Positions 377 to 64,000 are shown, counted from the stretch's first letter. The stretch: 64,000 bases of DNA from Parcubacteria group bacterium (GCA_016186395.1 JACPLU010000003.1:11883-75882); one strand, 5' to 3'. Numbers and translations are program-made. Notes: generated from the sequence alone by a model not told the origin.

Positions 377-1000
377 TGTCTCCTCCTTGAAGTAAAGAAC
401 GCGTTTGTTGAAATAGCAGTATATACTATGGTAGCATATACTTTTGTTTTTGTCAATTGAATCTAAAAATGTAGGCGGGATTTGTCTCATACTTAAGACC
501 CGAAGCCGGGTGAGCTACCCATGGCCAGGATGAAGTTCCGCGAAAGCGGAATGGAGGTCCGAACCCACGCATGGCGCAATATGCGGGGATGAGCTGTGGG
601 TCGGAGTGAAAAGCTTATCGAACCCGGTAATAGCTGGTTCTCTCCGAAATGCCTTTAGGGGCAGCGTCGGATTATGTTAAGTTGGGGGTAGAGCACTGAT
701 TGGATTTCCGTGCCCTTATGGGTAGGTTTTCCAGCCAAACTCCGAATACCAATTTAATTACTCCGGCAGTGAGACTACGGGGGCGAAGCTCCGTGGTCGC
801 GACGGGAACAGCCGTGATCTCAAGTTAAGGTCCCTAAATTAAGGTTAAGTGTGAAAGGTAGTGAAGACGCTCAAACAACCAGGAGGTTTGCTTAGAAGCA
901 GCCATCCTTTAAAGAGTGCGTAACAGCTCACTGGTCGAGCTTTTTTGCGCCTAAGATGTAACGGGGCTAAAACCTTATACCGAAACTGAGGGTTATCTGT

Positions 1001-1108
1001 GGCTCATCGATGCGTCTAAGGTCAAATGACTAAGGACTAAAGCTGAAAGGTTTAATTTTTGGCTTTAGACTTTAGACTCTAGACTTTAGTCGTGACGATG
1101 AGTCACGG
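1001..1108. repeat. 108-bp hairpin element, copy 1, inserted at the 23S helix-45 IVS hotspot
   Basis: Differs from 2087-2194 by a single nucleotide. Imperfect hairpin: gactaaggactaaagc ... gctttagactttagactctagactttagtc. Flanked by ggctcatcgatg / cgatgagtcacgg. Confidence 0.8.
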
Positions 1109-1956: not shown

Positions 1957-2086
1957 AATCTACGGCTGGCCGCAGCGAATGACCTCTGGGGACTGTTTAT
2001 CAAAAACACAGCTCTCTGCTAACTCGAAAGAGGATGTATAGGGGGCGACGCTTGTCCAATGCTGGAACGTTAACGGTGATGGTCGT

Positions 2087-2194
2087 GGCTCATCGATGCG
2101 TCTAAGGTAAAATGACTAAGGACTAAAGCTGAAAGGTTTAATTTTTGGCTTTAGACTTTAGACTCTAGACTTTAGTCGTGACGATGAGTCACGG
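2087..2194. repeat. 108-bp hairpin element, copy 2, inserted in the 23S domain IV helix-68 region
   Basis: Nearly identical to 1001-1108. It interrupts the 23S between ggtgatggtcgtg and ctggagcccgaagcgccagtcaatgacggc. Confidence 0.8.
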
Positions 2195-6782: not shown

Positions 6783-6791
6783 CCCTGAAGC

Positions 6792-7919
6792 ATGAAACAT
6801 GAGTCGTGCATCAAAAGGTTTAAAGATGTTTCATGTTTCATGTTTCATGATTTGAGAAAATTAGATTGGTGGCTTTTGACCCCTGTACTCGCTTTATTTT
6901 TAGCGAGTCTTTTAAACTTATACGGCATCGGAGGTTTTGATTCTTTCTTTATAAAACAACTTATTTTTGTATTAGTCGGTCTTGTTCTGTTATTATTTTT
7001 TGTTAGTATTGATTTTAGAATCTTTAGGGAATCAAGTATATTACCATCATTACTTTATGTTGCGTCTCTAATATTTTTATTCGGCACTCTATACTCTTCA
7101 GAAGTTCGCGGTATTAAAGCCTGGTTTTTTATAGGATCTTTTGGGTTTGAACCATCTGAAATTACAAAGTTAGCTTTAATATTATTTCTAGCTAAGTTTT
7201 TTTCGAGTAACGGCGGGCAAAGAACTAACCAACCCTTCTCATTGGGGATATCTTTGATATATACCCTAATTCCTATTGGCTTCATACTTTTACAACCAGA
7301 TTTTGGTTCGGCAGCAGTTTTAGGCGCTATATGGCTAAGTGCGTTAATGAATTTTAAAATCAAAAAGACACATATGCTATTTTCGACAGGTGTTTTGGTG
7401 TTGCTTGGTATTGTGATTTGGATTTTTATGCTCGCGCCGTATCAAAAAGCTAGATTTACTGCTTTTTTAGATCCGTTGGAAGATCCGCGCGGTTCCGGTT
7501 TTCAGAATCTTCAAGCTCAAATTTCAGTTGGTTCCGGAAACTGGTTGGGTTACGGTGTACAAAATGCTACTCAAGTTAAACTTGGTTATTTGTCAGAGCC
7601 AAGAAATGATTTTGCATTTGCGGCCTTTGCCCAACAGTTTGGTTTTTTAGGTACTTCTTTGGTCGTAATTTTGTATGGTTTATTTTTATATAGACTGTCC
7701 TCCATAGGGATATTTACAAAAGACCGATTTGTTCATATATTTGTTTTTGGATTTTTAATTTTTATTTCTACTCATTTAATTATTAATATTGGAATGAATA
7801 TCGGCGTTTTGCCTGTCACAGGAATTCCACTATCCTTTTTTAGTTATGGTGGGAGTCATCTATTAACTTTGATGTCTGGGCTTGGCATTGTTCAAAGTAT
7901 AAAGGTTCATACTTCTTAA
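6792..7919 (+). CDS. SEDS-family peptidoglycan glycosyltransferase (FtsW/RodA)
   Basis: Ten-TM SEDS architecture, with ...DFAFAAFAQQFGFLGTSLV... matching the FtsW/RodA conserved block. An alternative in-frame start at 6840 (MFHDLRKLDWW) lies inside a heptamer repeat array. Confidence 0.85.
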   Translation: MKHESCIKRFKDVSCFMFHDLRKLDWWLLTPVLALFLASLLNLYGIGGFDSFFIKQLIFVLVGLVLLLFFVSIDFRIFRESSILPSLLYVASLIFLFGTLYSSEVRGIKAWFFIGSFGFEPSEITKLALILFLAKFFSSNGGQRTNQPFSLGISLIYTLIPIGFILLQPDFGSAAVLGAIWLSALMNFKIKKTHMLFSTGVLVLLGIVIWIFMLAPYQKARFTAFLDPLEDPRGSGFQNLQAQISVGSGNWLGYGVQNATQVKLGYLSEPRNDFAFAAFAQQFGFLGTSLVVILYGLFLYRLSSIGIFTKDRFVHIFVFGFLIFISTHLIINIGMNIGVLPVTGIPLSFFSYGGSHLLTLMSGLGIVQSIKVHTS

Positions 7920-11300: not shown

Positions 11301-11533
11301 TTGGCGGCCAAAGATTTGGAGAGATGGAAGTATGGGCTCTTGAAGGATATGGAGCGGCTTATACATTGCAAGAGATGTTAACCATAAAGTCAGATGATGT
11401 AGTCGGAAGAGCCAAAACATATGAAGCAATCGTGAACAACGAAGAAATAAAGGCTCCGCATATACCCGAATCTTTTAAGGTGTTATTGTCAGAAATTAAA
11501 GGTTTGGGATTAGATGTGGAATTACAAGAATAA
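8369..11533 (+). CDS. rpoB: DNA-directed RNA polymerase beta subunit
   Basis: Full-length RpoB homology ([23 protein letters not shown], the NMQRQ region). Uses a TTG start, at 8369 or 8387; there is no ATG after the in-frame TAG at 8336. Confidence 0.95.
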
Positions 11534-11605
11534 GTCGCTAGCCACTAGAAACTAGCCACTAGGAGTTTTTAATCTAGTCGTTAGTCATTAGTCGTTAGTC
11601 ATTAG
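11534..11605. repeat. CTAG/TAG-rich tandem repeats immediately 3' of rpoB
   Basis: gctagccactagaaactagccactagg, followed by tagtcgttagtcat x2. TAG occurs in all three forward frames. Related to the repeat at 23338-23415. Confidence 0.7.
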
Positions 11606-14600
11606 TTGGACTTTAGCTCAATTCGTGTAAAACTTGCTTCGCCAGAAGATATCTTAAACTGGTCACATGGAGAGGTAACAAAGCCGGAAACCATAAACTA
11701 TAGGACTCAAAGACCAGAGCCCGAGGGTTTGTTTTCGGAAAAGATTTTCGGTCCACAAAAAGACTGGGAATGTTATTGCGGTAAATATAGGAGAATAAGG
11801 TATAAGGGAATTATTTGTGATCGTTGCGGGGTAGAGGTTACTCGTTCTATAGTTCGACGTGAAAGAATGGGACATATTAGTTTGGCGGCTCCAGTCGCTC
11901 ATATTTGGTTTTTGCGCGGAGTACCAAGCAGAATGGCGATGTTGCTTGATTCATCTTTACCGGAATTGGAAAAAGTAATTTATTTTGCGGCCTATATAGT
12001 TACCAGAGTTAATGAAGAAGCTAAAACAGAAGCAATGAAAAAACTTGAGAGTGAGTTTCGTTCGGCAATGGCTATCTTAAAGAAGAAAGGGAATGACGAA
12101 AAGGAATTAGAAAAATTGAGAGCAATTAAAGAGCGTGAACGGCTTCTGCTTAGAAATATTCAAAAATATCAGATTCTTTCAGAAGTTGACTATCGAGAGC
12201 TTTCGTTGAAATATGCGGAAGTTTTTGAGGCCGGGATTGGTGCTGAAGCGGTGAAAAAATTGCTTTCAGAAATTGACTTGAATAGTTTGGCAATAGATGT
12301 CGAAAATAAACTTACTTCGGTTGATAACCCATTCTTGCAAAAGAAGATAGTAAGGAGATTAAAGTTGCTTAAAGGATTGGCGAAAGCCGGTATTAGGCCA
12401 GAATGGATGTTTCTTGATGTCATTCCGGTTATTCCACCTGATCTTAGACCAATGGTTCAGTTAGATGGTGGTCGTTTTGCCACATCGGACCTGAACGATC
12501 TTTATCGAAGAGTAATAAATCGGAATAACCGGTTAAAACACCTTATTGAATTAAGAGCGCCAGAAGTCATAACCAGAAACGAGAAAAGAATGTTGCAAGA
12601 AGCAGTAGACTCTTTAATAGATAATGCAATGAGAAGGGGACAGACAATTACCACTTCACAAGCTGGCCAGCGAAGAGCATTAAGGTCTTTGGCCGATATG
12701 TTAAAGGGAAAACAAGGAAGATTTAGACAGAACCTTTTAGGTAAAAGGGTTGATTATTCTGGACGTAGTGTAATCGTTATCGGACCAGAGTTGAATTTTG
12801 ACCAATGTGGTTTGCCAAAACACATGGCATTGGAACTTTTTAAACCTTTTGTAATTCAGAAATTAAAGGAAAGGGGAATAATTCATAACATTCCTGGAGC
12901 AAGACGACTTATTGAACAGGAAAGCCCCGAAGTTTGGGAAGCGTTAGAGGAGGCTATAAAAGATAAATTAGTTCTTCTTAATCGAGCTCCAACTTTACAT
13001 AGATTGGGAATTCAGGCTTTTCGTCCTATTCTTCACGAAGGTAAGGCGATCAGAATTCCGGCCATGCCAACTCATGCTTTTAACGCTGACTTTGACGGTG
13101 ACCAAATGGCTGTTCATTTGCCCTTAACCAAAGAGGCACAGGAGGAAGCCAAAAATTTGATGCTTTCTTCTAAGGGAATTCTAAAACCGGCCACTGGTCG
13201 TCCCATTGCTACGCCGACTAAAGATATTGCTTTTGGGATTTATTATTTAACTCTTGGAATTGACGGATTAATTGGTGAGGGGAAGGTTTTCGGTTCTCCG
13301 GGGGAAGCATTGATGGCATATGATAACAAATGTATTGAACTCCATTCTAAAATAAAAGTACGTTTTAATTCAAATTTAGAGACGGCAACTGACGAGAATA
13401 TAAAAAGTGAATTGGTTTTAACTACTGTTGGGAGGATTTTATTTAGTAAGATTTTACCAAGCGGAATGGCATATGTAAATCAAGCTTTAAACAAGTCTGA
13501 TCTTGAAAAAATAGAAGCAACAATTTTAGAGAAGTATGGAGAAACAATGGCAGCGGATTTTTTGAACAACGTTAAAGATCTTGGTTTCTTTTTCGCAACC
13601 GTTTCCGGTATATCGTGGTCTATGGATGATCTTCGTATTCCGGAGGAAAAACATCAAATTGTTGCTAAAGCTGATGAGTTGATTGAAAAAAATCACGAAC
13701 TTTATGAGCAAGGTCTTTTAACGGATCTTGAGCGAAAAATTAAAGCTATCGAAATATGGAATGACGTTAAGTCTGAAATTGGGAAATCAGTTAAAAAGGC
13801 TTTAAGATCTGATGATCCGGTTAAGATTATAGTAGATTCAAAGGCTCGAGGAAGTTGGGATACGGTTAACCAGCTTATGGGTATTAGAGGTTTATTTGCT
13901 AATCCAGCCGGAGAAATTATTGAACTGCCCGTGAAAAATTCTTTCAAAGAGGGCTTAAACGTTTTGGAATATTTTATTTCTACTCATGGTGCCCGAAAAG
14001 GATTAGCCGATACAGCCTTGCGTACGGCTACAGCAGGCTATCTTACTCGTAGATTAGTTGACGTAGCTCAAGATATCGTTGTTAGGGAGGAAGATTGTAA
14101 AGACAGCGAGGGCTATGATATTTATCGTGAAGATGGTAACTATACTGGAGAAACTTTGGGTGGCAGGGTTAGAGGAAGATTTGCCGCAGAAACAATAAAA
14201 TCAGATACAGGCGAAATTATAGCTAAGAAAGGAGAGTTAATAGATAAGGCTAAGGGTGACAAGATGGATTTAGCAAAGCTTAACCAAGTTCGGGTTCGTT
14301 CGGTTATAACTTGTAAGTCAAGAATTGGTTTGTGTCAGACTTGCTATGGTTATGATTTGGGTAGAAATAAAATTGTAGAACTCGGAGAATCGGTAGGAAT
14401 AGTAACGGCTCAAGCTATTGGAGAACCAGGCACCCAGCTTACTATGAGAACATTCCATACCGGTGGAGTTGCCGCATCTGGAGATATTACGTTGGGTTTG
14501 CCCCGTGTTGAGGAAATTTTTGAAGCCCGTATTCCCAGGTCACCAGGTGTAATTTCTGACGTTGACGGCAGGGTGGTCTCTATAGAAGAAAAGGGAAAGC

Positions 14601-20023: not shown

Positions 20024-20148
20024 GAAAGGAACCCAGACGCGGAGCCATAGTTGTCGTTCGGGTTGCTTACGTCGTTCGTGTTGAACTTGACCTTGTCGTC
20101 GTTGAAGTTGAAGTACGGCGCGCTGCTGAACCTGCCATCAGCGTCTGG
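20024..20148 (-). repeat. DGR template repeat (TR)
   Basis: 125 bp homologous to 20620-20744. All 15 mismatches are T on plus (A on the coding/minus strand) in this copy. The translated frame is Asn-rich (NFNDDKVKFNTNDVSNPNDNY), typical of AAC-rich TRs. The 70-aa ORF 19963-20175 is therefore not a gene. Confidence 0.85.
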
Positions 20149-23086: not shown

Positions 23087-23337
23087 AAAAAGACTGAAAC
23101 TAGAACTCTGAAGGAAATCTTCCAAACTTTCTTTGGTGGGCTGACGTTGCTGGAAGTAATGCCATTTGTCTAGCTGTCTTAATTGCTCTAGCTAGTCTTT
23201 TTTGATGAGGAATACAAAGCCCAGTGTATTTGCGGGGCTTTATTTTTAAGTCAGGCATTAAAAATCTGCGCAGTAGGGGTGCGTTTTTATAGTCAAATTT
23301 TTTTCGATTGTCTTGGCAGAGTTGACAGACGATGTTA

Positions 23338-23415
23338 GCGACTAGTGCCTAGCGCGACTAGTGCCTAGTAATTAAAAATGTTCTTTACTAGTTTCTAGTG
23401 GCTAGTGGCCAGTTT
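23338..23415. repeat. CTAG-rich tandem repeats immediately 3' of ssb, in the gene's orientation
   Basis: gcgactagtgcctag x2, then ctagtttctagtggctagtggccagtttctag. The reverse complement contains ctagaaactggccactagccactagaaactag, which is related to the rpoB-distal repeat. Confidence 0.7.
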
Positions 23416-23913: not shown

Positions 23914-23920
23914 GGTTTCG

Positions 23921-23980
23921 ACTAAAGTCAAAAGACTAGGGACTAAAGTTTTGGTCTTTAGACGCTAGACATTAGACTTA
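23921..23980. repeat. Stop-rich hairpin element (gactaaag family) between ssb and rpsF
   Basis: gactaaagtcaaaagactagggactaaagttttggtctttagacgctagacattagac. Confidence 0.6.
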
Positions 23981-24421: not shown

Positions 24422-24915
24422 AGTCCAGTATTAGAACCCAGTAGTAGAGTAAAACTCACTACCGGACTTTGCTTCGACAGTATAAGAAGCGAACGAAGTG
24501 AGCGTAGTCCAGCACTAAACAAAGTTTTAGTGCTGGATTTCAGCTGGGCATGTCGTCTCCAGATAATAGCAAATTAGATGTGGATTCGTCAACTTACTGT
24601 GTGCCTTTCCACATCTGCCTTTCCACATCGGGTGTGGAAAGGCGTTGGGATAGGGAGTAATCGTTAATGAGGTACTTGCGTCGAGATTTGATGTGATTTT
24701 CGACATCGCAAGTCGAAGAGGTTTTGTTTGCGGTGTCTTACGACATTCAATGTCGTAAGAGTAAGAAATTTATGAGTTTTGACGATTCAAGACTGTGAAT
24801 TGGATCTCTAGCGGGGGTTGATCCCTAACGGGATCAACCCCCGCCCTTAAGTTTAAGAGTGGGGTTGATAATAGATTTTGGAATTCTTGAGTTTTGGTAT
24901 ATTATCACAAATACT

Positions 24916-30602: not shown

Positions 30603-30851
30603 AATTAAAAAGTTAAAAATTAAAACTCAAAATTACAAATGAAAAATCAAAAGTTATTTTTCTTATATTTATTATAGTATTTTCTGGGATAATTTACATT
30701 TGACAGAATTGTTTATTCTTTTTCGACAATGTGGAAGCGTGGCGGCTTGGTGTCGGGCTAAAAGCCTGACCGCCGCGCTGGAACGTTAGCGAGCATATCG
30801 CTGGAATATGCGAGCGTGTCGGAAAAGTATAAACGATTCTGGAAGTTAAAG

Positions 30852-32792: not shown

Positions 32793-32880
32793 TTAATAAA
32801 AATCAAAAATCAAAAGGCAAAAGTCAAAAGTATGAATAAAGATCTTTTGATTTTTTGAAGTTTTTAGAGAAATTACTTAA

Positions 32881-33179: not shown

Positions 33180-34184
33180 CTAAGCTGTTAATTTTTCTAA
33201 ATCTTTAAATCTATCCAAAAGTTCGTTATTACTCGGATCTTGTTTAGAGTTGATTGCCATAAAGTAACTGGTCCATATCGCAAGAGTATAATTAGTAAAA
33301 ATTTTCTGAATCACATTATCTCCTTCTAGGGTAATAACTTGATGGTTTATACTAAGATCGCTAAGTATTTTAACGGCGACATCTAATTTTTTTATTTGTT
33401 TTGGGTTCTCTTGGGGATCAGATAATAATATCGAATAAAAGTTTTTACTAGATTCAAATCCAACAATTTCGTTATGAGCAATACTTGGAAAGTGGTTCCA
33501 AAAAGAATGAGCCTTCGCGTTTTCATTGAAATTTATCTTCCATAATAGAGGCAGTGCCCGCCATTTATAAGAAGAATAAATGATTGGGGTAAGATTATTA
33601 ATTTGATTGGCTATATTTTTACCGGTTATCTCTAACTCTTCGGGTTTCAGTGTATTTTTAAGATCCAAGAGTTGCTTTAAAATGTTATTTTCTGGAAATT
33701 TAAGTATAGCAGAATCATTCAAGAAGGTCAATAGGGCAGAAAACATATAAGCGGTTCCAATCCGTGGCGGTATATTTTCCTGGGGTAGCAGTATAAAACC
33801 GAGAGAATTTTGAGCCAATTCTCTTAACTTTCCTCCTTTTGTTATAACAACTGTTTGAATGCCTTTTTCTATGGCAGATTTGTATGAGGAAATAGTTTCA
33901 TCGGTATTGCCGGACCAAGAAACACATATTACAAGATCATTTTTTGAGACCCAACTTGGCAGTTCGTAGTCGCGATGAATATAAAAATTATAATTCGGGG
34001 TTTGAGTAACTTCACAAAGAGTCATTAGGATTTCTGCGGGCATCATTGATCCACCCATTCCGCAAAGAACGATTTTATCAAATTTTTTTTGATCGAACTT
34101 AACACTTTTGGCAGATTCACTTCCTGTTTGAAATTGTTCCGGGATATTTAAAATTGTTTGGCGGAAGTCCGAATCGTGAATCAT
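33180..34184 (-). CDS. Bifunctional phosphoglucose/phosphomannose isomerase (SIS domain, archaeal-type PGI/PMI)
   Basis: CGMGGSMMPAEI SIS motif and about 330 aa size. Confidence 0.7.
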   Translation of the reverse strand: MIHDSDFRQTILNIPEQFQTGSESAKSVKFDQKKFDKIVLCGMGGSMMPAEILMTLCEVTQTPNYNFYIHRDYELPSWVSKNDLVICVSWSGNTDETISSYKSAIEKGIQTVVITKGGKLRELAQNSLGFILLPQENIPPRIGTAYMFSALLTFLNDSAILKFPENNILKQLLDLKNTLKPEELEITGKNIANQINNLTPIIYSSYKWRALPLLWKINFNENAKAHSFWNHFPSIAHNEIVGFESSKNFYSILLSDPQENPKQIKKLDVAVKILSDLSINHQVITLEGDNVIQKIFTNYTLAIWTSYFMAINSKQDPSNNELLDRFKDLEKLTA

Positions 34185-34262
34185 GAATCATGAAACATGA
34201 AACCTAAATCATGAAACATGAAACATCGTAATGTTCCATATTTCATGTTCAATGTTCCATGG
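34185..34262. repeat. (C)ATGAAAC heptamer tandem array abutting the PGI start codon
   Basis: gaatcatgaatcatgaaacatgaaacctaaatcatgaaacatgaaacatcg, plus inverted copies ttccatatttcatgttcaatgttccatgg. Confidence 0.7.
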
Positions 34263-41896: not shown

Positions 41897-42265
41897 ATGC
41901 CAAAAGTACCCGCGGCACTTTTAAAAGAAGCAAAAGAGTATTTTGATCAATTAGAGCAATGCGCGCGTCAGCTATTTCCAGTAAATGAAAATTATGATCA
42001 TCAGGTAGTGTTAAAGATGAACGATAATGGTTCAGTTGAGAACGTTAAAACCGTAATTATTCTTGGAGGAATAGCAAAAAAGACAACTGGAGATGTGGTA
42101 TTTGAACCAGGAATCTATATATTTTTTGATCAAGCCGGGAAGATGAAATGCCGTAGGTTAGACCACTCTATATTTGAATATGAGCCTTGGAAAGACAACC
42201 CAAAGCTTTTGCAAGAATTTATAGAAAAGGCTAAAGACGTTTTAAGCTCGCAAAAGAAATCATGA
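41897..42265 (+). CDS. Hypothetical protein (122 aa)
   Basis: RBS aaggaga 7 nt upstream of ATG at 41897. The earlier ORF start at 41822 lacks an RBS. Confidence 0.45.
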   Translation: MPKVPAALLKEAKEYFDQLEQCARQLFPVNENYDHQVVLKMNDNGSVENVKTVIILGGIAKKTTGDVVFEPGIYIFFDQAGKMKCRRLDHSIFEYEPWKDNPKLLQEFIEKAKDVLSSQKKS

Positions 42266-42281
42266 ACCCCGTTAGGGGTTT

Positions 42282-44288
42282 TTAACTGGCAAAGTTTTCT
42301 TTTTTCAATCTTTGGATCTGCTCACGGATAATCAATGCTGTTTCAAAATCAAGTTGTTTTATTGATTTTTCCATTGCCCGTTTTAGTCGATCAATCATTT
42401 GTTCAAAATTTCCATTTTCTGATTCCGTTAATATGACTCGGTAGTCTTCTGACAACTGTTTGACCTTTCTTTTGATCGGTAAGTCAAAATCAACGATTGC
42501 TTTTTTAATTGTTTGTGGCGTTATGCCGTGTTTTTTGTTGAAGATTTCTTGAATTTTTCTTCTTCTGTTTGTCTCGTCAATCGCGGCTTGCATAGATTTG
42601 GTTATTTTATCTGCATACATTAAAACATGACCTTTATCGTGTCTGGCTGCTCGTCCCATTGTTTGGATTAAAGTAGTTGCATTTCTTAAGAATCCTTCTT
42701 TATCAGCATCTAAAATTGCAACTAGCGAGACTTCCGGTAAGTCAAGCCCTTCTCTTAAAAGATTAACCCCGACTATTACGTCGTATGTTCCAAGTCTTAA
42801 GTCTCTTATAATTTCAAGGCGGTCAAGGGTTTTAATTTCTGAATGAATGTAGTTGACTTTAATTTCGGCATCTGCAAGGTACTCGGTTAAATCTTCGGCC
42901 ATTCGTTTGGTGAGTGTAGTTATTAGAACCCTATGATTCTGGCTAATCCTCTTTTTGATTTCTTGAATTAAGTGTACAACTTGATTTTTGCTTTCCACTA
43001 TTTCTATTTTTGGATCTAAAAGTCCGGTTGGCCTTACCAACTGTTCCACCAGTCCTTTTTTAGTGGATTTTTTGAGTTCGTATTTTGCCGGAGTGGCTGA
43101 AACATACATTGTTTGTTGTATTCTTTTTTCAAATTCCTCAAATACTAACGGTCGGTTATCTAATGCGGAAGGTAACCGAAAGCCGTATTCTACAAGTGTT
43201 TCTTTTCTTCGTCTGTCGCCTCGATACATACCTCTTAATTGCGGAACTGTGATGTGGGACTCATCAATAATAGTTAAAAATTCTTTTTTAGTTTTAAAAA
43301 AGTCTAGTAATGAAAATGGTGGATCGCCGGCATTTCTAAAATCTAAATGACGGGAATAATTTTCAATTCCATGGCAGTAGCCGGTTTGTTTAATCATTTG
43401 AATGTCACGTAATGTCCGTTCAGTTAATCGGCCAGCCTCAATTCCTTTGCCCTGCCGTTTTAACTTTTCAGTATGCTGCTGCATCTCTGTTTGTATGTTT
43501 TGTAATGCAATATCAACTTTATTTTCCGGCGTTATCCAATATTTTGCAGGGAAGACTTTTACTTGAAGTAAACTTTGAAAACTCGGTCGTTTATATTCAA
43601 GTTCATCCTGGTTTATATTTTCAGCTACACCGATTCTTACAATTTTTCCTTTTACAATCTTAAATTTATAAATAACATTTCCTGTGGCAGAGAAAATTTC
43701 AACTTCGTCTTTTGTGTTTCTAAATGTTCCGCGCTTTAATTCGTAATCCCTAATGTACTGAAGTTTTTGAACATTCTTGATAAAATCAACAAGTGAAATT
43801 CTTTGTCCTTCAAAAGCTTCCATACACATTTTTTCATAATCTTCCGGAGAACCAAGGTTATAAATGCAGGAAACTGATGCAATAATAATTACATCGTCTC
43901 TGCTTAAAATGGCTTGAGTGGCGGCGTGTCTTAAGCGATCAATTTCTTCGTTAATGCGAGAATCTTTTTCAATATAAGTATCAGAGTGGGGGAGGTAGGC
44001 TTCTGGTTGATAGTAATCATAATAACTGACAAAATAATGTACTGAATTTTCTGGGAAATATTGTTTAAATTCTTGATAAAGCTGAGCGGCTAAAGTTTTA
44101 TTGTGAGAAATCACTAGGGTAGGCTTTTTAAGATTTGATATTACATGAGCCATGGTAAATGTTTTACCACTACCGGTTACTCCTAATAGGGTTTGATTTT
44201 TTTTGCCATTACTAAAACCTGCTGTAAGTTTACCTATAGCTTGTGGTTGGTCGCCGGTAGGAAGATAGGGTTCGTGTAATTGGAACAT
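42282..44288 (-). CDS. uvrB: Excinuclease ABC subunit B
   Basis: GVTGSGKTFTMA Walker A, helicase motifs, and a C-terminal UVR domain. Confidence 0.95.
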   Translation of the reverse strand: MFQLHEPYLPTGDQPQAIGKLTAGFSNGKKNQTLLGVTGSGKTFTMAHVISNLKKPTLVISHNKTLAAQLYQEFKQYFPENSVHYFVSYYDYYQPEAYLPHSDTYIEKDSRINEEIDRLRHAATQAILSRDDVIIIASVSCIYNLGSPEDYEKMCMEAFEGQRISLVDFIKNVQKLQYIRDYELKRGTFRNTKDEVEIFSATGNVIYKFKIVKGKIVRIGVAENINQDELEYKRPSFQSLLQVKVFPAKYWITPENKVDIALQNIQTEMQQHTEKLKRQGKGIEAGRLTERTLRDIQMIKQTGYCHGIENYSRHLDFRNAGDPPFSLLDFFKTKKEFLTIIDESHITVPQLRGMYRGDRRRKETLVEYGFRLPSALDNRPLVFEEFEKRIQQTMYVSATPAKYELKKSTKKGLVEQLVRPTGLLDPKIEIVESKNQVVHLIQEIKKRISQNHRVLITTLTKRMAEDLTEYLADAEIKVNYIHSEIKTLDRLEIIRDLRLGTYDVIVGVNLLREGLDLPEVSLVAILDADKEGFLRNATTLIQTMGRAARHDKGHVLMYADKITKSMQAAIDETNRRRKIQEIFNKKHGITPQTIKKAIVDFDLPIKRKVKQLSEDYRVILTESENGNFEQMIDRLKRAMEKSIKQLDFETALIIREQIQRLKKENFAS

Positions 44289-44335
44289 AAACTATGAAAC
44301 TTGAAACATGAAACTTGAAACATTTTGCGCTTCAC
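44289..44335. repeat. ATGAAAC-type heptamer repeats abutting the uvrB start codon
   Basis: aaactatgaaacttgaaacatgaaacttgaaacatt, directly 5' of the uvrB ATG on the minus strand. Confidence 0.7.
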
Positions 44336-44365
44336 GTTTTAGGTTTCGCATGTTAGTCTTAAATC

Positions 44366-47941: not shown

Positions 47942-49243
47942 ATGTTTAAAGAGATTAGAATAGTTGAGAATATGTTAAGGTTTATTAGAGGTTTAATTCC
48001 GCGACGGGTATTTAGGTTTTTTCAACCTTGGTATCACGGCACTCTTTCTTTACTAGGATCATACTTTTATGGCCAGCCATCAAAAAAAATAAAGGTTATT
48101 GGGGTTACTGGCACTAAAGGAAAATCAACCACTGTTTTTTTAATATCTAAACTTTTAGGTGAAGCTGGTAAATCCGTAGCAGCCATCGGTTCCTTGGGTT
48201 ATAGAATTAAAGATAGGCAATGGCCTAATGAATTAAAAATGACTATGCCAGGGAGATGGAAACTACAAAAGTTTTTATATGAGGCGGTAAAAGAAAAGTG
48301 TGAATATGTGGTACTTGAAGTTACTTCTGAAGGATTGGCTCAAAATAGACATTGGGGCGTTAAATTTGACTGTGCGGTATTTACGAATTTATCCAAGGAA
48401 CATCTTGAAAGCCATGGCTCATTTAGCAAATATTATCAAGCTAAACAAAGATTATTTGAAAAAACGAAAAATATACACGTTCTAAATGCAGACGATTCAC
48501 ATATTGAGCTTTTCTCAAAATTTGAATCCAGTAAAAAGATCTTTTATGGCATAAATCATGGGGATATGAAAGCTGTAGATACCAATGTTTTATCAGATAG
48601 AGTTGAATTTGAAATATATGGTACGAAGTTCAATATCAATTTGGGGGGTGAATTTAATATTTATAATTGTTTAGCCGCTCTATCCTGTGTAGCAATGTAT
48701 GGGATGGATTTACCACAGAGTAAAGCAATTCTCGAAAAAGTAACAAACATTTCAGGCCGCATGGAATTTGTGCACAAAAATCCAGACGTGATTGTTGATT
48801 ATGCCCATACTCCGGATTCGTTGGAGAAAGTTTATAAAACCTTTCGGGAGGATACAAGATTCAAGATTCAAGGTTCAAGACTAATTTGTGTACTCGGTGC
48901 GGCTGGCGGGGGACGCGATAAATGGAAAAGGCCGGAATTCGGGAAAATTGCTGAAAAATATTGTGACGAAATTATCCTTACTAACGAAGACCCTTTTGAT
49001 GAAGATCCTTATCAGATTTTATCTGAAATAAAATCCGGAATTTTAACTCCCAGAATTCAAAGTTCAAATTTTTACGAAATCCTTGACCGTAAAGAGGCAA
49101 TTAAACAGGCCTTGACCTTAGCTGGAGAAAATGATACTGTTATTATTACAGGTAAAGGATCAGAGACTTCTATTGCTGTTTCAAATGGCAAGAAAGTCCC
49201 CTGGTCTGACAAGAAGATTATTTTAGAACTTTTAAAAAAATAG
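47942..49243 (+). CDS. murE: Mur ligase family protein, MurE-like
   Basis: VIGVTGTKGKSTT P-loop and the DYAHTPDSLEKV motif, which is characteristic of MurE. Confidence 0.7.
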   Translation: MFKEIRIVENMLRFIRGLIPRRVFRFFQPWYHGTLSLLGSYFYGQPSKKIKVIGVTGTKGKSTTVFLISKLLGEAGKSVAAIGSLGYRIKDRQWPNELKMTMPGRWKLQKFLYEAVKEKCEYVVLEVTSEGLAQNRHWGVKFDCAVFTNLSKEHLESHGSFSKYYQAKQRLFEKTKNIHVLNADDSHIELFSKFESSKKIFYGINHGDMKAVDTNVLSDRVEFEIYGTKFNINLGGEFNIYNCLAALSCVAMYGMDLPQSKAILEKVTNISGRMEFVHKNPDVIVDYAHTPDSLEKVYKTFREDTRFKIQGSRLICVLGAAGGGRDKWKRPEFGKIAEKYCDEIILTNEDPFDEDPYQILSEIKSGILTPRIQSSNFYEILDRKEAIKQALTLAGENDTVIITGKGSETSIAVSNGKKVPWSDKKIILELLKK

Positions 49244-51305: not shown

Positions 51306-52127
51306 ATGCATTGGAAAAACTTTTTTAAAGAGTTAATTCTTTTTTTGGCAGTTCAACTGCTTGGGATTTGGGTGTCGTATAGTTTCGTATCTTATCTTCC
51401 TTCTGAAAATCTTTCTAAGGTTGAATTTAATTTTGGTTTTGGTGACCTAATTGTATTTGTTATTATTATCGGAGCTTTTGTTTTGATAGGTCGCCATTCT
51501 CCTTTAAGAAGAGCTATTTTATATAAAACCTTTTTTGCGATTATTTTATTTGTAGGTGTTCAGACGGTTTTAGCTCTGTGGTTGAATGTTTCTTTATCAA
51601 CTATCCTGTCAATTTTATTAATCTACGCACTTTTTAAAACCAAGAAAGTCTGGATACATAATCTGGCTGTTGTTTTAGCGCTTGCCGGAATCGGTGGAAC
51701 ATTTGGAGCATCTTTAACGCCTCTAAATGCCGTGTTTATTTTAGTAATTTTATCCTTTTATGACATAGTCGCAGTTTATAAAACTAAGCACATGGTACAG
51801 ATGGCTGAAGATATGATTAGGTCCAGAGCTATTTTTGGCGTTGTTTTGCCATCTGGGCGTGGGTGGTTTGAATCCTTGGAAAATGTTAAACCTGGTGGTC
51901 AATTCATGATTTTGGGTTCTGGAGACATTGCTCTGCCTTTAATTTTAATAGCTTCAATCGTAAGAACTAATATTTTTCATTCATTTTTAGTTCTAGCTTT
52001 TTCAATGGCCGGGCTTTTAATTACACACATACTTTTTGTTAGACAAAAAGAAAGAAAACCTATGGCTGCATTACCTCCAATCGCAACCATGTCGATTGTC
52101 GGCTATCTTGTTTCAACTTTAATTTAG
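51306..52127 (+). CDS. Presenilin/signal-peptide-peptidase-like intramembrane aspartyl protease (A22 family homolog)
   Basis: Multi-TM protein with LSFYDIVAV (YD motif) and LGSGDIALP (GxGD motif) in adjacent TM helices. Confidence 0.6.
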   Translation: MHWKNFFKELILFLAVQLLGIWVSYSFVSYLPSENLSKVEFNFGFGDLIVFVIIIGAFVLIGRHSPLRRAILYKTFFAIILFVGVQTVLALWLNVSLSTILSILLIYALFKTKKVWIHNLAVVLALAGIGGTFGASLTPLNAVFILVILSFYDIVAVYKTKHMVQMAEDMIRSRAIFGVVLPSGRGWFESLENVKPGGQFMILGSGDIALPLILIASIVRTNIFHSFLVLAFSMAGLLITHILFVRQKERKPMAALPPIATMSIVGYLVSTLI

Positions 52128-52139
52128 AAATAATATTTA

Positions 52140-52206
52140 ACGTCTAATGTCTTAAGACTAAGGTCTATAATCATAAAGAAGCTTTAGACATTAGCCTTTG
52201 GTCTTT
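52140..52206. repeat. Stop-rich hairpin element (variant of the gactaaag family)
   Basis: cgtctaatgtcttaagactaaggtct...ctttagacattagcctttggtctttagtc. Confidence 0.55.
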
Positions 52207-53574
52207 AGTCAAAGAATGCGAATTACCTTTTACGGTGGAGCAAAGCTTGTTACAGGAGCAAATTATTTGTTGGAAGACAAAGATTTTCTTGCTCTTGTTG
52301 ACTGTGGTTTATTCCAAGGTTCTCGTTTTTGTGAGGACTTAAATTACGAACCATTTCCTTATGAGCCCAAAAATATTAAATATGTTTTTATAACTCATAG
52401 TCATATTGATCATACCGGAAGGTTGCCAAAACTTTATAAAGAAGGTTTTAGGGGTAAAGTTTTTTCTACTAGACCCATCCGGGATATTTTAGAACACGCT
52501 TTGCCTGACAGCCTTAATCATCTTAAAAGAGAAGCAGAGGAACAAAATCGGGAACCTATTTATAGTTTTGAAGATGTTGGTTCTGTTATAAAATTGTTTG
52601 AAACTTTTGATTATGATCAAAAAACTGATTTGGGCAATGGAAAATATTTTATACTGCATGACGCCGGACATATATTGGGTTCTAGTATTATTGAATTTGG
52701 CTGGTCTGGCGGACGGATTTTATTTTCTGGTGATTTAGGTAATCCACCGACACCATTACTTAGGCCGACTGAATACATTGAGGGGGTGGATTACGTTGTA
52801 GTTGAATCTGCCTATGGCAATAGAATTCATGAAAATAGAGACGAGAGAAAGGAGATACTAAAAACAACTATCGAAGAAACTATAAAAAGAGGTGGTGTAT
52901 TAATGATTCCTTCTTTTGCAATGGAACGTACTCAAGAGCTTTTGTTTGAACTAAATGAGATGGTGGAGAATAAAAGAATTCCTTTTATCCCAATTTTTAT
53001 AGACAGTCCATTAGCTATCAAATTAACTGAAGTTTATAAAAAACACGAAGCATATTTTAACAAAGAAGCATCCTATTTGATAGATAGTGGTGATGATATA
53101 TTCAAATTTCCGGGACTCTATTTTACATCTTCGGTTGAAGAATCAAAGTCAATAAATGAGGTAAATTCTCCAAAGATTATTATTGCCGGTTCTGGTATGA
53201 GTCAGGGTGGAAGAATTTTACATCATGAAAGGCGATATTTGTCGGATCCTAACAGTACAATTTTATTTGTTGGCTATCAGGCTAAAGGAAGCTTGGGAAG
53301 AAAAATCTTGGATGGGGAAAAAGAAGTTAAAATATTTGGAGAGAGCATACTAATTAAGTGTAAAATAAAGGCTATTGGCGGCTATTCTGCTCATGCCGAT
53401 CAACCGGGTCTTGTACGTTGGGTTAAAAAGGCTTCTATTGGTGAAAAGCTAAAAAAAGTTTTTATTGTACAAGGAGAAGAAATAGCTATGGAAGCGTTGA
53501 GCGAAAAATTGAAGGATGAAATTAGCGGTCTAGAAACTGTTATACCTAGCATTGGGGACGATTTTGATTTATAG
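52198..53574 (+). CDS. beta-CASP family metallo-beta-lactamase ribonuclease (CPSF/RNase J-like), second copy in window
   Basis: HSHIDHTGRLP MBL motif and beta-CASP region, about 450 aa. Confidence 0.8.
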   Translation: MVFSQRMRITFYGGAKLVTGANYLLEDKDFLALVDCGLFQGSRFCEDLNYEPFPYEPKNIKYVFITHSHIDHTGRLPKLYKEGFRGKVFSTRPIRDILEHALPDSLNHLKREAEEQNREPIYSFEDVGSVIKLFETFDYDQKTDLGNGKYFILHDAGHILGSSIIEFGWSGGRILFSGDLGNPPTPLLRPTEYIEGVDYVVVESAYGNRIHENRDERKEILKTTIEETIKRGGVLMIPSFAMERTQELLFELNEMVENKRIPFIPIFIDSPLAIKLTEVYKKHEAYFNKEASYLIDSGDDIFKFPGLYFTSSVEESKSINEVNSPKIIIAGSGMSQGGRILHHERRYLSDPNSTILFVGYQAKGSLGRKILDGEKEVKIFGESILIKCKIKAIGGYSAHADQPGLVRWVKKASIGEKLKKVFIVQGEEIAMEALSEKLKDEISGLETVIPSIGDDFDL

Positions 53575-53613
53575 TATATAGAAATGGGCATGAACTTCGT
53601 TAAAAGACTCGGG

Positions 53614-53700
53614 TCTAGCGTCTAAGGACTAAAGTCTAAAGACTAACGGCTAACGCCAATACCTTTCAGCTTTAGTCCTTAGACATTAAGCTACACATGA
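53614..53700. repeat. Stop-rich hairpin element (CGTCTAAGGACTAAAG family)
   Basis: gcgtctaaggactaaagtctaaagactaacggctaacg...ctttagtccttagacattaagctacacatga. TAA occurs in all three frames. Confidence 0.75.
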
Positions 53701-53836
53701 CCCCGTAGTGAAAATTCGAATGGATTTATCCATGCTATATTTACTAGGGGTTAGAGAGAATTTTAATATAGACTTTCGAATAATTCTTTAAAGAGACGCG
53801 AAAATCATAAAGCATTATTCGAATTTCTACTACGGG

Positions 53837-54541
53837 GTGAAAAAACTTCAAAACGTAAACCTGCCAGCAGCAAAACTTCCAGTTTATAAGGAGACAGAAG
53901 ATTTTAGGTCTTCAATGCACTGGAGGGTTTTTAGAATATTGGCAGAATTCATTGAAGGTTTCGGGTTTATTGCTGACTTTAAAAAGTCGGTCACAATTTT
54001 TGGATCAACTAGAACTTCGGAAGATAATCATTGGTACAAAGAAGCGGAGAAGTTGGGGAAGTCTTTGGCTGAAGAAGGTTTTGCTGTAGTAACCGGAGGA
54101 GGGCCGGGAATTATGGAAGCCGTTAATAAGGGAGCAGCTGAAGGAGATGGAAATTCAGTAGGACTAAATATTCAACTACCCCACGAACAACGTACAAATC
54201 CCTATGTAAATAAACCTAAGGGGTTCCACTATTTTTTTACCCGTAAATTAATGCTTACATATTCTGCTCAAGCTTATGTTTATTTTCCTGGTGGATTTGG
54301 CACTCTTGATGAGTTTTTTGAAATTACAACTCTGATTCAAGAGAAAAAGATTTTTAGTCATATCCCGGTGATTCTGGTGGGTAAAGAGTATTGGTCCCGG
54401 TTAACCGAGTGGATAGACCAGGAACTTTACCAAAAACACAGGACTATAGATAAAGAAGATATGGGAATTTATACTATAGTTGATACGGCTGAAGAAGCTC
54501 TGGCAATAATTAAACAGTCGAAACCCAGGGATGAATTTTAA
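53837..54541 (+). CDS. LOG family protein (cytokinin riboside 5'-monophosphate phosphoribohydrolase-like)
   Basis: VTGGGPGIMEA and PGGFGTLDE motifs. Confidence 0.85.
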   Translation: MKKLQNVNLPAAKLPVYKETEDFRSSMHWRVFRILAEFIEGFGFIADFKKSVTIFGSTRTSEDNHWYKEAEKLGKSLAEEGFAVVTGGGPGIMEAVNKGAAEGDGNSVGLNIQLPHEQRTNPYVNKPKGFHYFFTRKLMLTYSAQAYVYFPGGFGTLDEFFEITTLIQEKKIFSHIPVILVGKEYWSRLTEWIDQELYQKHRTIDKEDMGIYTIVDTAEEALAIIKQSKPRDEF

Positions 54542-62455: not shown

Positions 62456-62667
62456 GTGATCAATTTTATAATTCCTGTCAGAAAACCCCGAGCGTCAGCT
62501 CGGGGATGAATGACAGCCCCGAAGCGAGCGCAAGCGAGCGTAGGGAAATTATATAAGTCAGGATTGATTTTGAAAAGCATCAATATCTTTTCAAAATCAA
62601 TCCCGTACTCTCTGGAGTACCACGGGCGTAAGCCCGTAGACTTCTATAAACCCTCGCAAGAAGACTA

Positions 62668-62743
62668 TGGTCTAACGTCTAAGGACTAAAGCCGAAAAGT
62701 ACTGGCGCTAGTTGTTAGTCCTTAGACGTTAAGCTACACATGA
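62668..62743. repeat. Stop-rich hairpin element (CGTCTAAGGACTAAAG family)
   Basis: acgtctaaggactaaagccgaaaagtactggcgctagttgttagtccttagacgttaagctacacatga. Confidence 0.75.
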
Positions 62744-62865
62744 ATCCCGTTAGAGATACCCAAAATTCAGTCAATAAATCTAACGGGGGTTATAAAATAC
62801 TGTATGAATAAACACATAAAATTAACTTGGCTCGATCATCTAAAGATGATCTGTCTCTTAACGGG

Positions 62866-63843
62866 ATGAATACGCGGCCTAAAACTGTTTCAATTTTAGC
62901 TTTAATTATATTAGGTATGGGAGGCTTTTTTTTATTTGAGAAAAAGTTTAACTTTATAGAAACAAATAAGAAAAAGCCGGATATCGATCAGACCAATTTA
63001 ACTATCAAGGCTGAAAGTCTTACCCCAGTGCCACCGTACCTTTTGCCGGTGACCGAATCCAACTATCTACCATTGAGAGATTGGAATATTCCAGACCTTG
63101 ATCTTGAAGCTAAAGCTGCAGTTGCTTACGATATTAAGTCCGGGAAATATCTTTTTGTCAGAGGACTTGAAGAAAAATTGCCGATTGCTTCATTAACTAA
63201 GTTAATGACCGCCGTCGTTATTTGGGAAAATCTTAAATTAGATATGGTCGTTAAAGTAACGAAAGAAAGTTTAAACAAAACACATTCCTTGGAAGGAAAT
63301 AGTGATTTAAGCGTAGGGGAAAGTTTGTCTGTTTTAGATTTGCTTCGTTTAATGTTGATTAAATCAAGTAATGACGCGGCATATGTTTTAGAGCATGAGT
63401 CAAGGGGTGAGGAAATAGATGTTTTGGACAAAATGAATAAACTTGCTACCAGTTTAGGTATGAATAATACTAACTTTTTAGACGTAGCTGGTTTAAATGA
63501 TAACGGTTTTTCAAGTGTTGGGGATCTTGTGTTATTAATAAAATACTCTTTGAATTACGAAGGCATTTATGAAATTTTAAGAACTGAAAACGATATCATT
63601 CCTTCTTTAGACGGCAGGATTTCTCATCAAATATCCAATACTAATAAATTATTAAGTTTTCTAAAAAATGTTATTGGCGGAAAAACCGGCTATACAGATG
63701 TTGCTTTGGGTAATATGTTGCTTGTGGTTAAGGCTCCGGATGGCAACGACGATATTATTACTATTATTCTTGGTTCAAAAGATCGTTTTACAGAAATGAG
63801 GAAATTGGTAGAATGGTCTCAGAAGGCGTATAGGTGGGAATAA
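62866..63843 (+). CDS. D-alanyl-D-alanine carboxypeptidase (PBP5/6-type serine peptidase)
   Basis: ASLTKLMTA (SxxK), KSSNDAA (SxN) and GGKTGYT (KTG). The start is set at ATG 62866, after an N-terminal TM anchor. Confidence 0.8.
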   Translation: MNTRPKTVSILALIILGMGGFFLFEKKFNFIETNKKKPDIDQTNLTIKAESLTPVPPYLLPVTESNYLPLRDWNIPDLDLEAKAAVAYDIKSGKYLFVRGLEEKLPIASLTKLMTAVVIWENLKLDMVVKVTKESLNKTHSLEGNSDLSVGESLSVLDLLRLMLIKSSNDAAYVLEHESRGEEIDVLDKMNKLATSLGMNNTNFLDVAGLNDNGFSSVGDLVLLIKYSLNYEGIYEILRTENDIIPSLDGRISHQISNTNKLLSFLKNVIGGKTGYTDVALGNMLLVVKAPDGNDDIITIILGSKDRFTEMRKLVEWSQKAYRWE

Positions 63844-64000
63844 AATTCAAAAGTTAGAAATCAAAAATCAAAATTATAATTTAAAATTTAGAATTTTAAA
63901 TTAAACTTCTGACTTTTGCCTTTTGAGTTCTGATTTTATTGCATGTTGGATCAAACTTTTACTATTTTTAACGTTGTAAGAATTTTTACAGTTGCGACCC

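Follow-up and report, generated by a model that had tools for sequence, protein, structure and literature searches.

Heptamer-built palindromic hairpins in gene spacers and 23S rRNA helices of a Parcubacteria group bacterium: a candidate lineage-specific repeat family

Introduction

What kind of element is a stop-codon-rich hairpin that stands between two genes, has relatives in other spacers of the same DNA, and occurs twice more inside the 23S rRNA gene? The question is raised by the hairpin at 53612-53690 in a 64,000-nt stretch of DNA from a Parcubacteria group bacterium (GCA_016186395.1 JACPLU010000003.1:11883-75882). This whole stretch is called the window here, and positions are counted from its first letter. 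A preliminary description, made from the sequence alone, had placed related hairpins at 23921-23980, 52140-52206, 53614-53700 and 62668-62743, in addition to the two 23S copies. It had proposed that they act as terminators or translational insulators, or that they are a dispersed family of miniature inverted-repeat transposable elements (MITEs). All of these hairpins were recovered at those positions. Because the genomes of Patescibacteria are tiny and hold very little non-coding DNA, such a repeat family is unlikely to go unnoticed by the cell.

With somewhat better than even confidence, we read the hairpins as a lineage-specific palindromic family that resembles repetitive extragenic palindromes (REPs) and has stems made of heptanucleotide repeats. 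They are probably transcribed, both as intercistronic RNA hairpins and as rRNA insertions of the intervening sequence (IVS) type, and are likely RNase III substrates. The alternatives weighed below are not mutually exclusive.

Results and discussion

Construction and folding of the hairpins

At least 11 short imperfect palindromes were found in the 64 kb, with stems of 17-45 bp. All lie outside protein-coding sequence, save for overlaps with stop or start codons. Six of them have arms of tandem heptamers, GWCTAAR in the 5′ arm and YTTAGWC in the 3′ arm, and at least five additional hairpins are made of other heptamers (CATGAAA, CTAGYSR, AAAATCA-like). The 15-mer GTCTAAGGACTAAAG matched the window 26 times at up to three mismatches, against 1.92 matches expected and 6 in the largest shuffle. 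Eight period-7 runs were present, compared with none or one for each of the periods 5, 6 and 8-11, and 20 of the 54 rows returned by Tandem Repeats Finder had period 7. Runs of three or more CTAR and YTAG tetramers at 7-nt spacing were seen four and eight times, respectively (0.02 in shuffles). All six GWCTAAR hairpins have the 5′ motif RCGTCTAA in common; seven of its eight window matches lie within them, against 2.6 expected. The intergenic copies vary in length and unit order, and the one at 62668-62733 has 17 perfect pairs. Stop codons in three frames, as the preliminary description had noted, were present in 11 of 11 hairpins, and on both strands. Rfam gave no match over the window hairpins at gathering score, and none over 52100-53900 at E values up to 5.

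RNA folding was scored against shuffled sequence (z values in Table 1). In six hairpins (both 23S copies, 6786-6849, 11533-11612, 34178-34262 and 52140-52210) the sense RNA folded 3.6-14.3 kcal/mol better than the antisense RNA, by way of G.U pairs. For the 23S element at 999-1108, which has six G.U pairs, the strand comparison gave −32.9 for sense and −19.5 for antisense. The sense-strand advantage is suggestive of selection on RNA, without being decisive.

Two further period-7 arrays were noted. In the spacer behind the RNase J gene, AATTAAA (7.7 copies, 30603-30656) adjoins the start codon of a gene for Trp/Tyr-tRNA synthetase (30602, minus strand), and no clear inverted partner was seen for it. 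GATTCAA (4.3 copies, 48851-48880) lies within coding DNA, in the Mur ligase gene.

One element in two 23S rRNA helices

The two 23S copies (999-1108 and 2085-2194) are each 110 nt long and differ at one base (C1023 vs A2109). In pairwise alignment their borders are sharp and their flanks unrelated. A non-repetitive outer stem (GTGGCTCATCG/CGATGAGTCAC) encloses the heptamer inner stem, with the units GTCTAAG GTCAAAT GACTAAG GACTAAA on one side and CTTTAGA CTTTAGA CTCTAGA CTTTAGTC on the other. The copy at 999-1108 folded at −57.9 kcal/mol. By their positions in the Rfam large subunit (LSU) rRNA model, the copies stand at what we take to be, per E. coli numbering, the tips of helix 45, a classical IVS site, and of helix 68. 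The first has the features of an IVS, being an insertion at the helix 45 tip that forms an extended stem. The second is not at a classical site; there, 110 nt stand where the model has a 13-nt loop. From the alignment, one whole element has clearly been copied between two 23S helices. No target-site duplication was found at the sharp borders of either copy. Short non-intron insertions at known IVS sites have been described in 23S genes of the candidate phyla radiation (CPR), and were proposed to be RNase III-type IVSs (PMC11270868).

The MITE proposal stood in part. The family is dispersed, as the common RCGTCTAA motif and the copying within the 23S gene indicate. It does not consist of MITEs in the strict sense, as there were no terminal inverted repeats distinct from the stem and no target-site duplication, the intergenic copies vary widely in length and unit order, and the two composite copies are only 72% identical.

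Comparison with close relatives

Syntenic loci of 21-22 kb each were recovered from two relatives, L151 (RpoB C-terminus 84% identical) and L152 (80%). The GWCTAAR 15-mer, with its 26 matches in the window, had none in L151 and one in L152. Five matches were found in 308 kb around the beta-CASP homologues of other relatives, which is chance level. The L151 locus had no period-7 arrays. It carried instead at least nine copies per 21 kb (298-20013) of an unrelated 50-nt palindrome, TACTTAGGTGTCCGACACCTMAG(n3-4)CTKAGGTGTCGGACACCTAAGTA. These palindromes begin right past stop codons, and rpoB-rpoC and the ssb-rpsR spacer are among the junctions where they stand. L152 had a bare 19-nt rpoB-rpoC spacer and ordinary GC-rich terminators after rpoC, ftsK and recA. 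Downstream of the orthologous beta-CASP gene, relatives had unrelated hairpins or none. Since the family is missing from both nearest relatives, the hairpins were gained in this lineage and are not inherited regulatory structures. Like REP families (PMC3733652), such genome-specific repeats take up the same tolerant sites.

In the 23S rRNA gene of L152 (2150-5575), the helix 68 loop is short and native, and the site is empty. The helix 45 site holds a different insertion of ~300 nt (3490-3800) with the closing stem GGTGATTTCAT/ATGAAATCACC. This insertion contains a gene resembling tRNA-Glu(CTC), whose CCA is encoded (3509-3584), as well as a weaker tRNA match (3594-3666). These contents suggest that the 23S rRNA of L152 may be fragmented there by tRNA-processing enzymes. 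Separately, the beta-CASP gene of two relatives carries 4.7 copies of AAATTCA (L073, 4289-4321; L076, 6497-6529). The insertion is in frame, because the match of these two is 36 nt longer than that of the others.

Occurrence in other phyla

An exact search with one genome per species returned 68 loci of the form CTAAGGACTAA-N10-40-TTAGTCCTTAG, where ~2 were expected by our estimate. Most of them (52) were in nine Thermomicrobiales/Chloroflexia metagenome-assembled genomes (MAGs), with up to 15 per MAG. Two Gemmatimonadales MAGs had eight loci and two Pirellulaceae MAGs had four. Single loci were found in Prevotella, an Ectothiorhodospiraceae MAG and a Candidatus Falkowbacteria MAG, and one Hymenobacter locus resembled an ordinary terminator. 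The majority of the 68 were (GGACTAA)n...(TTAGTCC)n palindromes, from DNA with a GC content of 60-70%. At the Falkowbacteria locus, a murE-like gene has its stop codon overlapped and supplied by the 5′ arm; the murE-like protein is only 40% identical to the Mur ligase of the window. Inverted heptamer arrays of other units (such as AAGGCAA, GAGGATT, GGGATGA) occurred at distant beta-CASP homologue loci; runs across these loci numbered 26 for period 7, four for period 6 and three for period 8. Heptamer-built palindromes are widespread, to judge from these matches, and their unit differs by lineage. The preliminary description had taken confinement to this window, or absence from related genomes, as telling against its repeat family. 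Half of this was found: the family was missing in the two closest relatives, but the same kind of hairpin was present in the Falkowbacteria MAG and in several phyla.

Rfam had no family match in 14 of the loci from other phyla. Neither the hairpin pattern nor the tail pattern described below matched viral contigs, so there was no sign of a phage vector. The sequence strings of these repeats were not found in the literature that was searched. Variant units were mirrored between the arms of the other-phyla loci in 33% of cases, against 20% in the control, which is weakly positive. Mirrored variants exist (GGACGAA/TTCGTCC, GGGCAAA/TTTGCCC) and are not the rule. An association with gene 3′ ends in the other phyla was considered, since 61 of 69 hairpins had a long open frame ending at their edge (19% at random). 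It was discarded, because in GC-rich DNA any frame must end at an AT-rich, stop-rich hairpin and the test is therefore biased. Many Thermomicrobiales (GGACTAA)n palindromes (L007, L021, L025, L057, L067, L069 and others) are nested in a small GC-rich palindrome, such as CCCTCCC-n-GGGAGG or GCGACCAACCGAGG...CCTCGGTTGGTCGC. They recall the REPs of Thermomicrobium roseum, which sit within CCGSSCC(n3-4)GGSSCGG palindromes (PMC3733652).

The hairpins might be selfish DNA only, that is, mobile palindromes of the MITE or REP type which are moved by a transposase acting on single-stranded hairpin DNA and are tolerated past stop codons and at rRNA helix tips, with no role as RNA. The copying of the whole 110-nt element between 23S helices would be expected of such DNA, as would the absence of the family in close relatives, the presence of other palindromes at the same junctions in L151 and the patchy occurrence across phyla. 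We consider it unlikely, however, as there was no target-site duplication, no terminal repeat apart from the stem and no transposase among the scanned open reading frames (ORFs). Unit number and order differed in most copies, as slippage predicts, and the sense strand gains from G.U pairs in six hairpins.

Neutral by-products of replication slippage or template switching in AT-rich spacers, with neither function nor mobility, are quite improbable. In many prokaryotes, heptanucleotides are the most frequent of the long simple repeats (Mrazek 2007, summarised in PMC4679880), and units and copy numbers do vary by locus. Yet slippage alone does not copy a 110-nt element with a non-repetitive outer stem into a second rRNA helix, and it leaves the common RCGTCTAA end and the position of most copies directly past stop codons in a compact genome unexplained.

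The same (GGACTAA)n palindrome is multi-copy in GC-rich Thermomicrobiales, Gemmatimonadales and Pirellulaceae MAGs. Is this convergence, a common binding factor or horizontal transfer? A much wider proposition would be that stop-bearing heptamer palindromes are a widespread, unnamed class of self-propagating stop-hairpin-start modules, which couple or gate the translation of adjacent cistrons where genomes have no Shine-Dalgarno motifs, are processed by RNase III and can colonise rRNA helix tips as IVSs. On this view it would not be chance but horizontal spread, or a common factor acting in trans, that makes (GGACTAA)n recur in Patescibacteria, Chloroflexota, Gemmatimonadota, Planctomycetota, Bacteroidota and Gammaproteobacteria. 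We give this proposition little credence.

Placement between genes

A positional bias, which the preliminary description had suggested looking for, was present in the window: nine hairpins occupy spacers between protein-coding genes, and in seven of them the distance from the upstream stop codon to the hairpin is 0-12 nt. Six (6786-6849, 11533-11612, 23335-23413, 23921-23979, 34178-34262 and 52140-52210) end no more than 7 nt from the downstream start codon, or include it. A candidate ftsW start (ATG 6840) lies within the 3′ arm of 6786-6849. The stem base of 11533-11612 juxtaposes the rpoB stop (11531-11533) and the rpoC TTG start (11606), the rpoC N-terminus having been set by alignment with relatives. 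The 5′ arm of this hairpin has CTAGCCA/CTAGAAA units and its 3′ arm TTAGTCR units (GACTAAY family), joined by G.U pairing. The hairpin 23335-23413 has the ssb stop (23418-23416) on one side, and the probable rpsR start, ATC (23333-23331), 2 nt beyond it on the other. The hairpin 23921-23979 extends between the rpsF (S6) stop (23983-23981) and the ssb ATG (23913-23911). At 34178-34262, next to the stop of the solute-binding protein gene (34266-34264), the SIS/PGI ATG (34184) is part of the CATGAAA array. For 52140-52210, the signal-peptide-peptidase stop is at 52127 and the beta-CASP ATG at 52216. The possible member at 44289-44362 was the only array, among members and possible members, not located after a gene.

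Three hairpins lie within conserved operons, which as a rule are co-transcribed: one in rpoB-rpoC and two in rpsF-ssb-rpsR. They can therefore be no efficient terminators and must belong to the mRNA. None of the hairpins had a T-tract. The terminator scan called no scanned hairpin whole (34178-34262 was outside the scanned ranges); its only call within a hairpin was an inner 7-pair sub-stem of 11533-11612, on the antisense strand (11556-11537). Canonical terminators with a GC stem and a T-tract were present elsewhere, after ftsW (7929-7971), rpoC (15343-15380) and ftsK (18535-18553). The terminator reading of the preliminary description was thus poorly supported. Terminators or attenuators that need no U-tract, whether factor-independent or factor-assisted, would agree with strong stems right past stop codons, and with the strong hairpins, of one kind or another, that often follow the orthologous beta-CASP gene in relatives. 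Against them stand the three operon-internal hairpins, the canonical terminators of the same window and the two copies within the 23S rRNA, which needs read-through transcription. We regard this reading as very doubtful.

A Shine-Dalgarno-like motif at −4 to −12 was found for about 3 of 41 genes. As the genome is largely devoid of such motifs, structure at the start codon should matter for initiation. Non-ATG starts were noted directly behind heptamer hairpins: TTG in rpoC, probably ATC in rpsR, and GTG in a LOG-family gene. The arrays might also bind a protein of the cold-shock/OB-fold, S1 or CsrA-like kind, which would read single strands of RNA or DNA seven nucleotides at a time, the hairpin being the unbound state. 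The strict 7-nt period, the conserved CTAA core, the position of arrays next to starts in a Shine-Dalgarno-poor genome and the parallel to TAACTGA repeats (PMC4679880) all speak for such a protein. Its probability is nonetheless very low, as at least four unrelated heptamers occur in one genome, nearly all arrays are inverted pairs, which is superfluous for a single-strand binder, and no candidate binder was found in the window.

Translational insulation, where all-frame stops would halt read-through or frameshifted ribosomes ahead of the next gene, is the least probable of the readings: the stops in all hairpins and the stop supplied by the Falkowbacteria arm agree with it, but stops are plentiful in any AT-rich spacer as long as these, the rRNA copies are untranslated and an inverted repeat is unnecessary for the purpose.

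Table 1 Hairpins, composite elements and related arrays of the window. Fold z-scores are against shuffled sequence, with the folded region in brackets where it differs; energies of the strand comparison are in kcal/mol.
Feature	Position	Strand	Remarks
Palindromic 110-nt element, copy 1, 23S helix 45 tip	999..1108	+	LSU model ~1218 (Rfam alignment); z −9.3
110-nt element, copy 2, tip of long hairpin equivalent to 23S helix 68	2085..2194	+	LSU model ~1890 (Rfam alignment)
CATGAAA/TTTCATG hairpin	6786..6849	+	4 nt past stop of ORF 6015-6782; z −5.0; sense −26.9, antisense −19.0
rpoB-rpoC spacer hairpin	11533..11612	+	z −3.6; sense −22.0, antisense −17.4
CTAG-heptamer hairpin, ssb-rpsR spacer	23335..23413	-	z −3.4
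GWCTAAR hairpin, rpsF-ssb spacer	23921..23979	-	z −3.2 (23915-23985, minus strand)
Weaker period-7 array AAAAATC/AAAAGTC, possible member	32795..32870	-	Imperfect inverted partner; adjoins RNase J start and tRNA-Leu
CATGAAA-type hairpin, solute-binding protein gene to SIS/PGI gene	34178..34262	-	z −5.7; sense −34.1, antisense −19.8
Period-7 array TGAAACT/TGAAACA, possible member	44289..44362	+	Imperfect inverted partner; divergent uvrB-ruvA spacer
GWCTAAR hairpin, signal-peptide-peptidase gene to beta-CASP gene	52140..52210	+	z −2.6 (52135-52215)
Composite element, copy 1	53602..53760	+	GWCTAAR hairpin 53612-53690; linker ATTAAGCTACACATGA 53685-53700; second stem-loop 53700-53748; shared GGGGTTAGAGA end; z −5.7 (53606-53700)
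Far arm ATTCGAATTTCTACTACGGGGT	53817..53838	+	Alternative partner of 53700-53721; 22 nt, 91% complementary
Composite element, copy 2	62661..62800	+	GWCTAAR hairpin 62668-62733; linker GTTAAGCTACACATGA 62728-62743; second stem-loop 62745-62789; GGGGGTTATAAA end; z −5.6 (62660-62743)
AT-rich period-7 hairpin, AAATCAA-like/TTTTGCC-like units	63843..63937	+	Begins at D-Ala-D-Ala carboxypeptidase stop codon

A possible course of events, and what weighs against it

For the REP-like, transcribed family that we favour, the following course may be proposed. A stop-bearing 7-mer (GWCTAAR, CATGAAA or CTAGYSR) would expand by slippage, and an inverted copy would form the opposite arm. Whole elements would then be copied to new sites, with a preference for spacers just past stop codons and for the tips of existing RNA helices. 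Because the hairpins lie within transcription units, we infer that they are transcribed and fold into stems of 17-45 bp. In mRNA, such a stem would bridge the upstream stop towards the next start and could block 3′-5′ exonucleases. It might also be a double-stranded cleavage site for RNase III, and could hide the next start codon until a ribosome on the upstream gene opens the stem base. In 23S rRNA, it would be an IVS-type insertion, either excised by RNase III with fragmentation of the 23S or retained as an expansion.

Several observations weigh against this interpretation. Its functional part, namely transcription, cleavage and an effect on stability or translation, is deduced from position and predicted fold. 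The stop-hairpin-start layout is no proof of coupling, because it is the default outcome of any palindrome in a short spacer. The hairpin 53612-53690 is the sole case where the antisense strand folds better (by 5.4 kcal/mol), and five hairpins had no strand bias in folding. Besides the 23S pair, the copies are heterogeneous, and slippage in place fits them as well as mobility does. The rpoB-rpoC spacer of L152 lacks a hairpin, which makes the element dispensable in that relative. Neither a REP-associated tyrosine transposase (RAYT) or IS200-type transposase nor an RNase III gene was found in the 51 window ORFs scanned with Pfam, which at 50.0-61.0 kb included only the Lon and LOG genes. CGTC-type REPs also occur without a RAYT (PMC3733652), and CPR genomes generally retain RNase III (rnc), RNase J and PNPase (PMC12641178). 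The RNase J gene is present in the window.

The composite elements at 53.6 and 62.7 kb

The preliminary description had reported that the hairpins at 53.6 and 62.7 kb are each followed by a conserved tail and then by a second inverted-repeat hairpin, and this was confirmed. The tail, TTAAGCTACACATGA, has exactly two exact occurrences in the window (53686 and 62729), with a stem-loop after each: CCCCGTAGTGAAA...TTTACTAGGGG at 53700-53748 and CCCGTTAGA...TCTAACGGG at 62745-62789. By alignment, the two composite copies are 72% identical, and have in common the 5′ flank AAGACT..GGTCTA, the hairpin, the 16-nt linker and the second stem-loop. The sequence of the second stem-loop differs between them, with pairing kept. 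The far arm at 53817-53838 overlaps the first codon, GTG (53837), of the LOG-family ORF. The composite element could be a small RNA, could form the 5′ leader of genes downstream of it, or could be a mosaic repeat of the bacterial interspersed mosaic element type, and the two copies do not allow a choice among these. A promoter in the conserved 16-nt tail was considered and rejected, as there was no convincing promoter-like site at either copy.

A motif that resembles the second stem-loop of both composite elements, CCCGTTAGRGAT, had four window sites at one mismatch or fewer (0.46 expected), including 24804-24832, 42268-42279 and 62746-62757. At 42262-42285 it forms a minimal ACCCC-GTTA-GGGGT hairpin with a T-tract, directly past a TGA stop. 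Upstream of glmS, at 24811-24844 (minus strand), it gives a GC-rich hairpin of 15 bp.

Logan contigs of the runs SRR12113420, -22, -24 and -30 matched the window exactly over the hairpins 23335-23413, 23921-23979, 52140-52210 and 53612-53690, the shortest contig covering one of these four. No unit-number polymorphism was seen in this comparison of up to four hairpins per run with the window. At 53.6 kb the contigs were short, and two of three stopped at window position 53830, within the far arm of the second hairpin. Such repeats may disrupt short-read assemblies of these genomes.

Source and gene content of the window

The DNA comes from a small groundwater bacterium of the Patescibacteria/CPR, and the 64-kb window has a GC content of ~37%. 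The best-matching RpoB fragments (84% identity or less) carry the source labels Patescibacteria, Liptonbacteria, Portnoybacteria, Moranbacteria or Parcubacteria, which identifies the organism as a CPR/Patescibacteria bacterium. The window opens within a 23S rRNA gene (393-4234) that is heavily interrupted by insertions; the 5S gene (5713-5847) comes ~1.5 kb after the end of the 23S. ORFs for two LAGLIDADG endonucleases (2705-3160, 4847-5320) are located within or beyond the 23S gene. In the Rfam match, LSU model positions 15-565 were skipped (window region 1-406). The 23S domain I does not, therefore, adjoin position 393, and the window probably starts within a large insertion near the helix 25 site. 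After the rRNA genes come ftsW, rpoB, rpoC, ftsK, recA, rpsF-ssb-rpsR, glmS and the RNase J gene. Further genes are uvrB/C, ruvA, those of a Mur ligase, a beta-CASP nuclease and Lon, and a class II tRNA synthetase gene of the Asp/Asn/Lys type.

A complete diversity-generating retroelement was found at 18569-21471. It has a reverse transcriptase ORF (18569-19651, minus strand), a bAvd-like ORF (19630-19977, plus strand) and a 131-nt template repeat (20019-20149). The variable repeat (20616-20746) lies at the 3′ terminus of a GC-rich ORF (20614-21471, minus strand). All 16 mismatches between the repeats are at a T of the template copy on the plus strand, which is A on the coding strand. L151 and L152 have recA next after ftsK and no cassette of this kind between the two genes, which marks the one in the window as an insertion. 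ARAGORN called a tRNA-Phe with anticodon AAA at 24951-25025, within the glmS ORF (24859-26766). It is probably a false positive, because Rfam does not call it.

Comparison with known systems

Tandem interspaced guide RNA (TIGR) arrays were rejected, as neither their ~36-nt interspaced units nor a Tas gene was seen here. A TIGR system has units of this kind next to a Tas gene.

Rickettsia palindromic elements and the Correia elements of Neisseria are similar in being small palindromic repeats of reduced or compact genomes that occur in genes, RNA genes and spacers. Correia transcripts are cut by RNase III. Both types differ from the window hairpins in having a conserved full-length consensus and no heptamer periodicity, and Correia elements have terminal inverted repeats and a TA duplication.

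The likeness to REPs and to the GTAG- and CGTC-tagged families (Di Nocera et al. 2013, PMC3733652) is closer. Most REPs stand between ORFs that run in the same direction or converge, at less than 20 bp from the 3′ end of the upstream one; REPs sometimes supply the stop codon and are mostly transcribed (PMC3733652). Like these families, the window hairpins are short multi-copy extragenic palindromes, mostly in spacers of co-directional or convergent genes and within ~20 nt of an upstream stop, which they sometimes supply. In both, families are species-specific, close relatives differ in family and number, and action as RNA hairpins is supposed. However, REP stems measure 8-15 bp (PMC3733652), while those of the window measure 17-45 bp, consist of tandem heptamers and also occur inside rRNA. 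Since every GWCTAAR hairpin begins with CGTC, membership in the CGTC-tagged REPs was considered. It was rejected, as the tag of those REPs is an unpaired tetranucleotide at one end (PMC3733652), while here the motif is paired in the stem as part of a heptamer and the stems are far longer.

With respect to their units, the hairpins have the properties of heptanucleotide long simple repeats: tandem 7-nt units in three or more copies, enriched over other periods, in non-coding DNA. TAACTGA direct repeats stand by start codons in Beggiatoaceae, Cyanobacteria and Bacteroidetes, where horizontal spread and a binding protein were proposed (PMC4679880), and a regulatory role was suggested for heptamer repeats near start codons in Nostoc (bioRxiv 10.1101/2022.06.06.494920). 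The window arrays resemble these repeats, the short tandemly repeated repetitive (STRR) sequences and other long simple sequence repeats in being intergenic 7-nt tandem units which often touch start or stop codons. Shared with STRR and TAACTGA repeats are also a repeated unit that gives stops in all frames, a patchy occurrence across phyla and recurrence of the unit in unrelated lineages. Those repeats are direct arrays, with one inverted TAACTGA set reported, whereas the window arrays are nearly all inverted pairs and occur in rRNA as well. The units differ too, being GWCTAAR, CATGAAA and CTAGYSR in the window. Cyanobacterial STRR units are CCCCAGT, TTGGTCA and CAACAGT.

The 23S IVSs of Salmonella, Coxiella and Campylobacter, at helices 25 and 45, are matched by one copy exactly at the helix 45 tip, with a long stem typical of RNase III substrates. 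The second copy, at helix 68, sets the element apart from them, as does a sequence family that also populates mRNA spacers. If the stems are processed, they would provide a simple sequence signature for RNase III or other processing sites in uncultured bacteria, and would link REP-type palindromes, heptanucleotide simple repeats and 23S intervening sequences.

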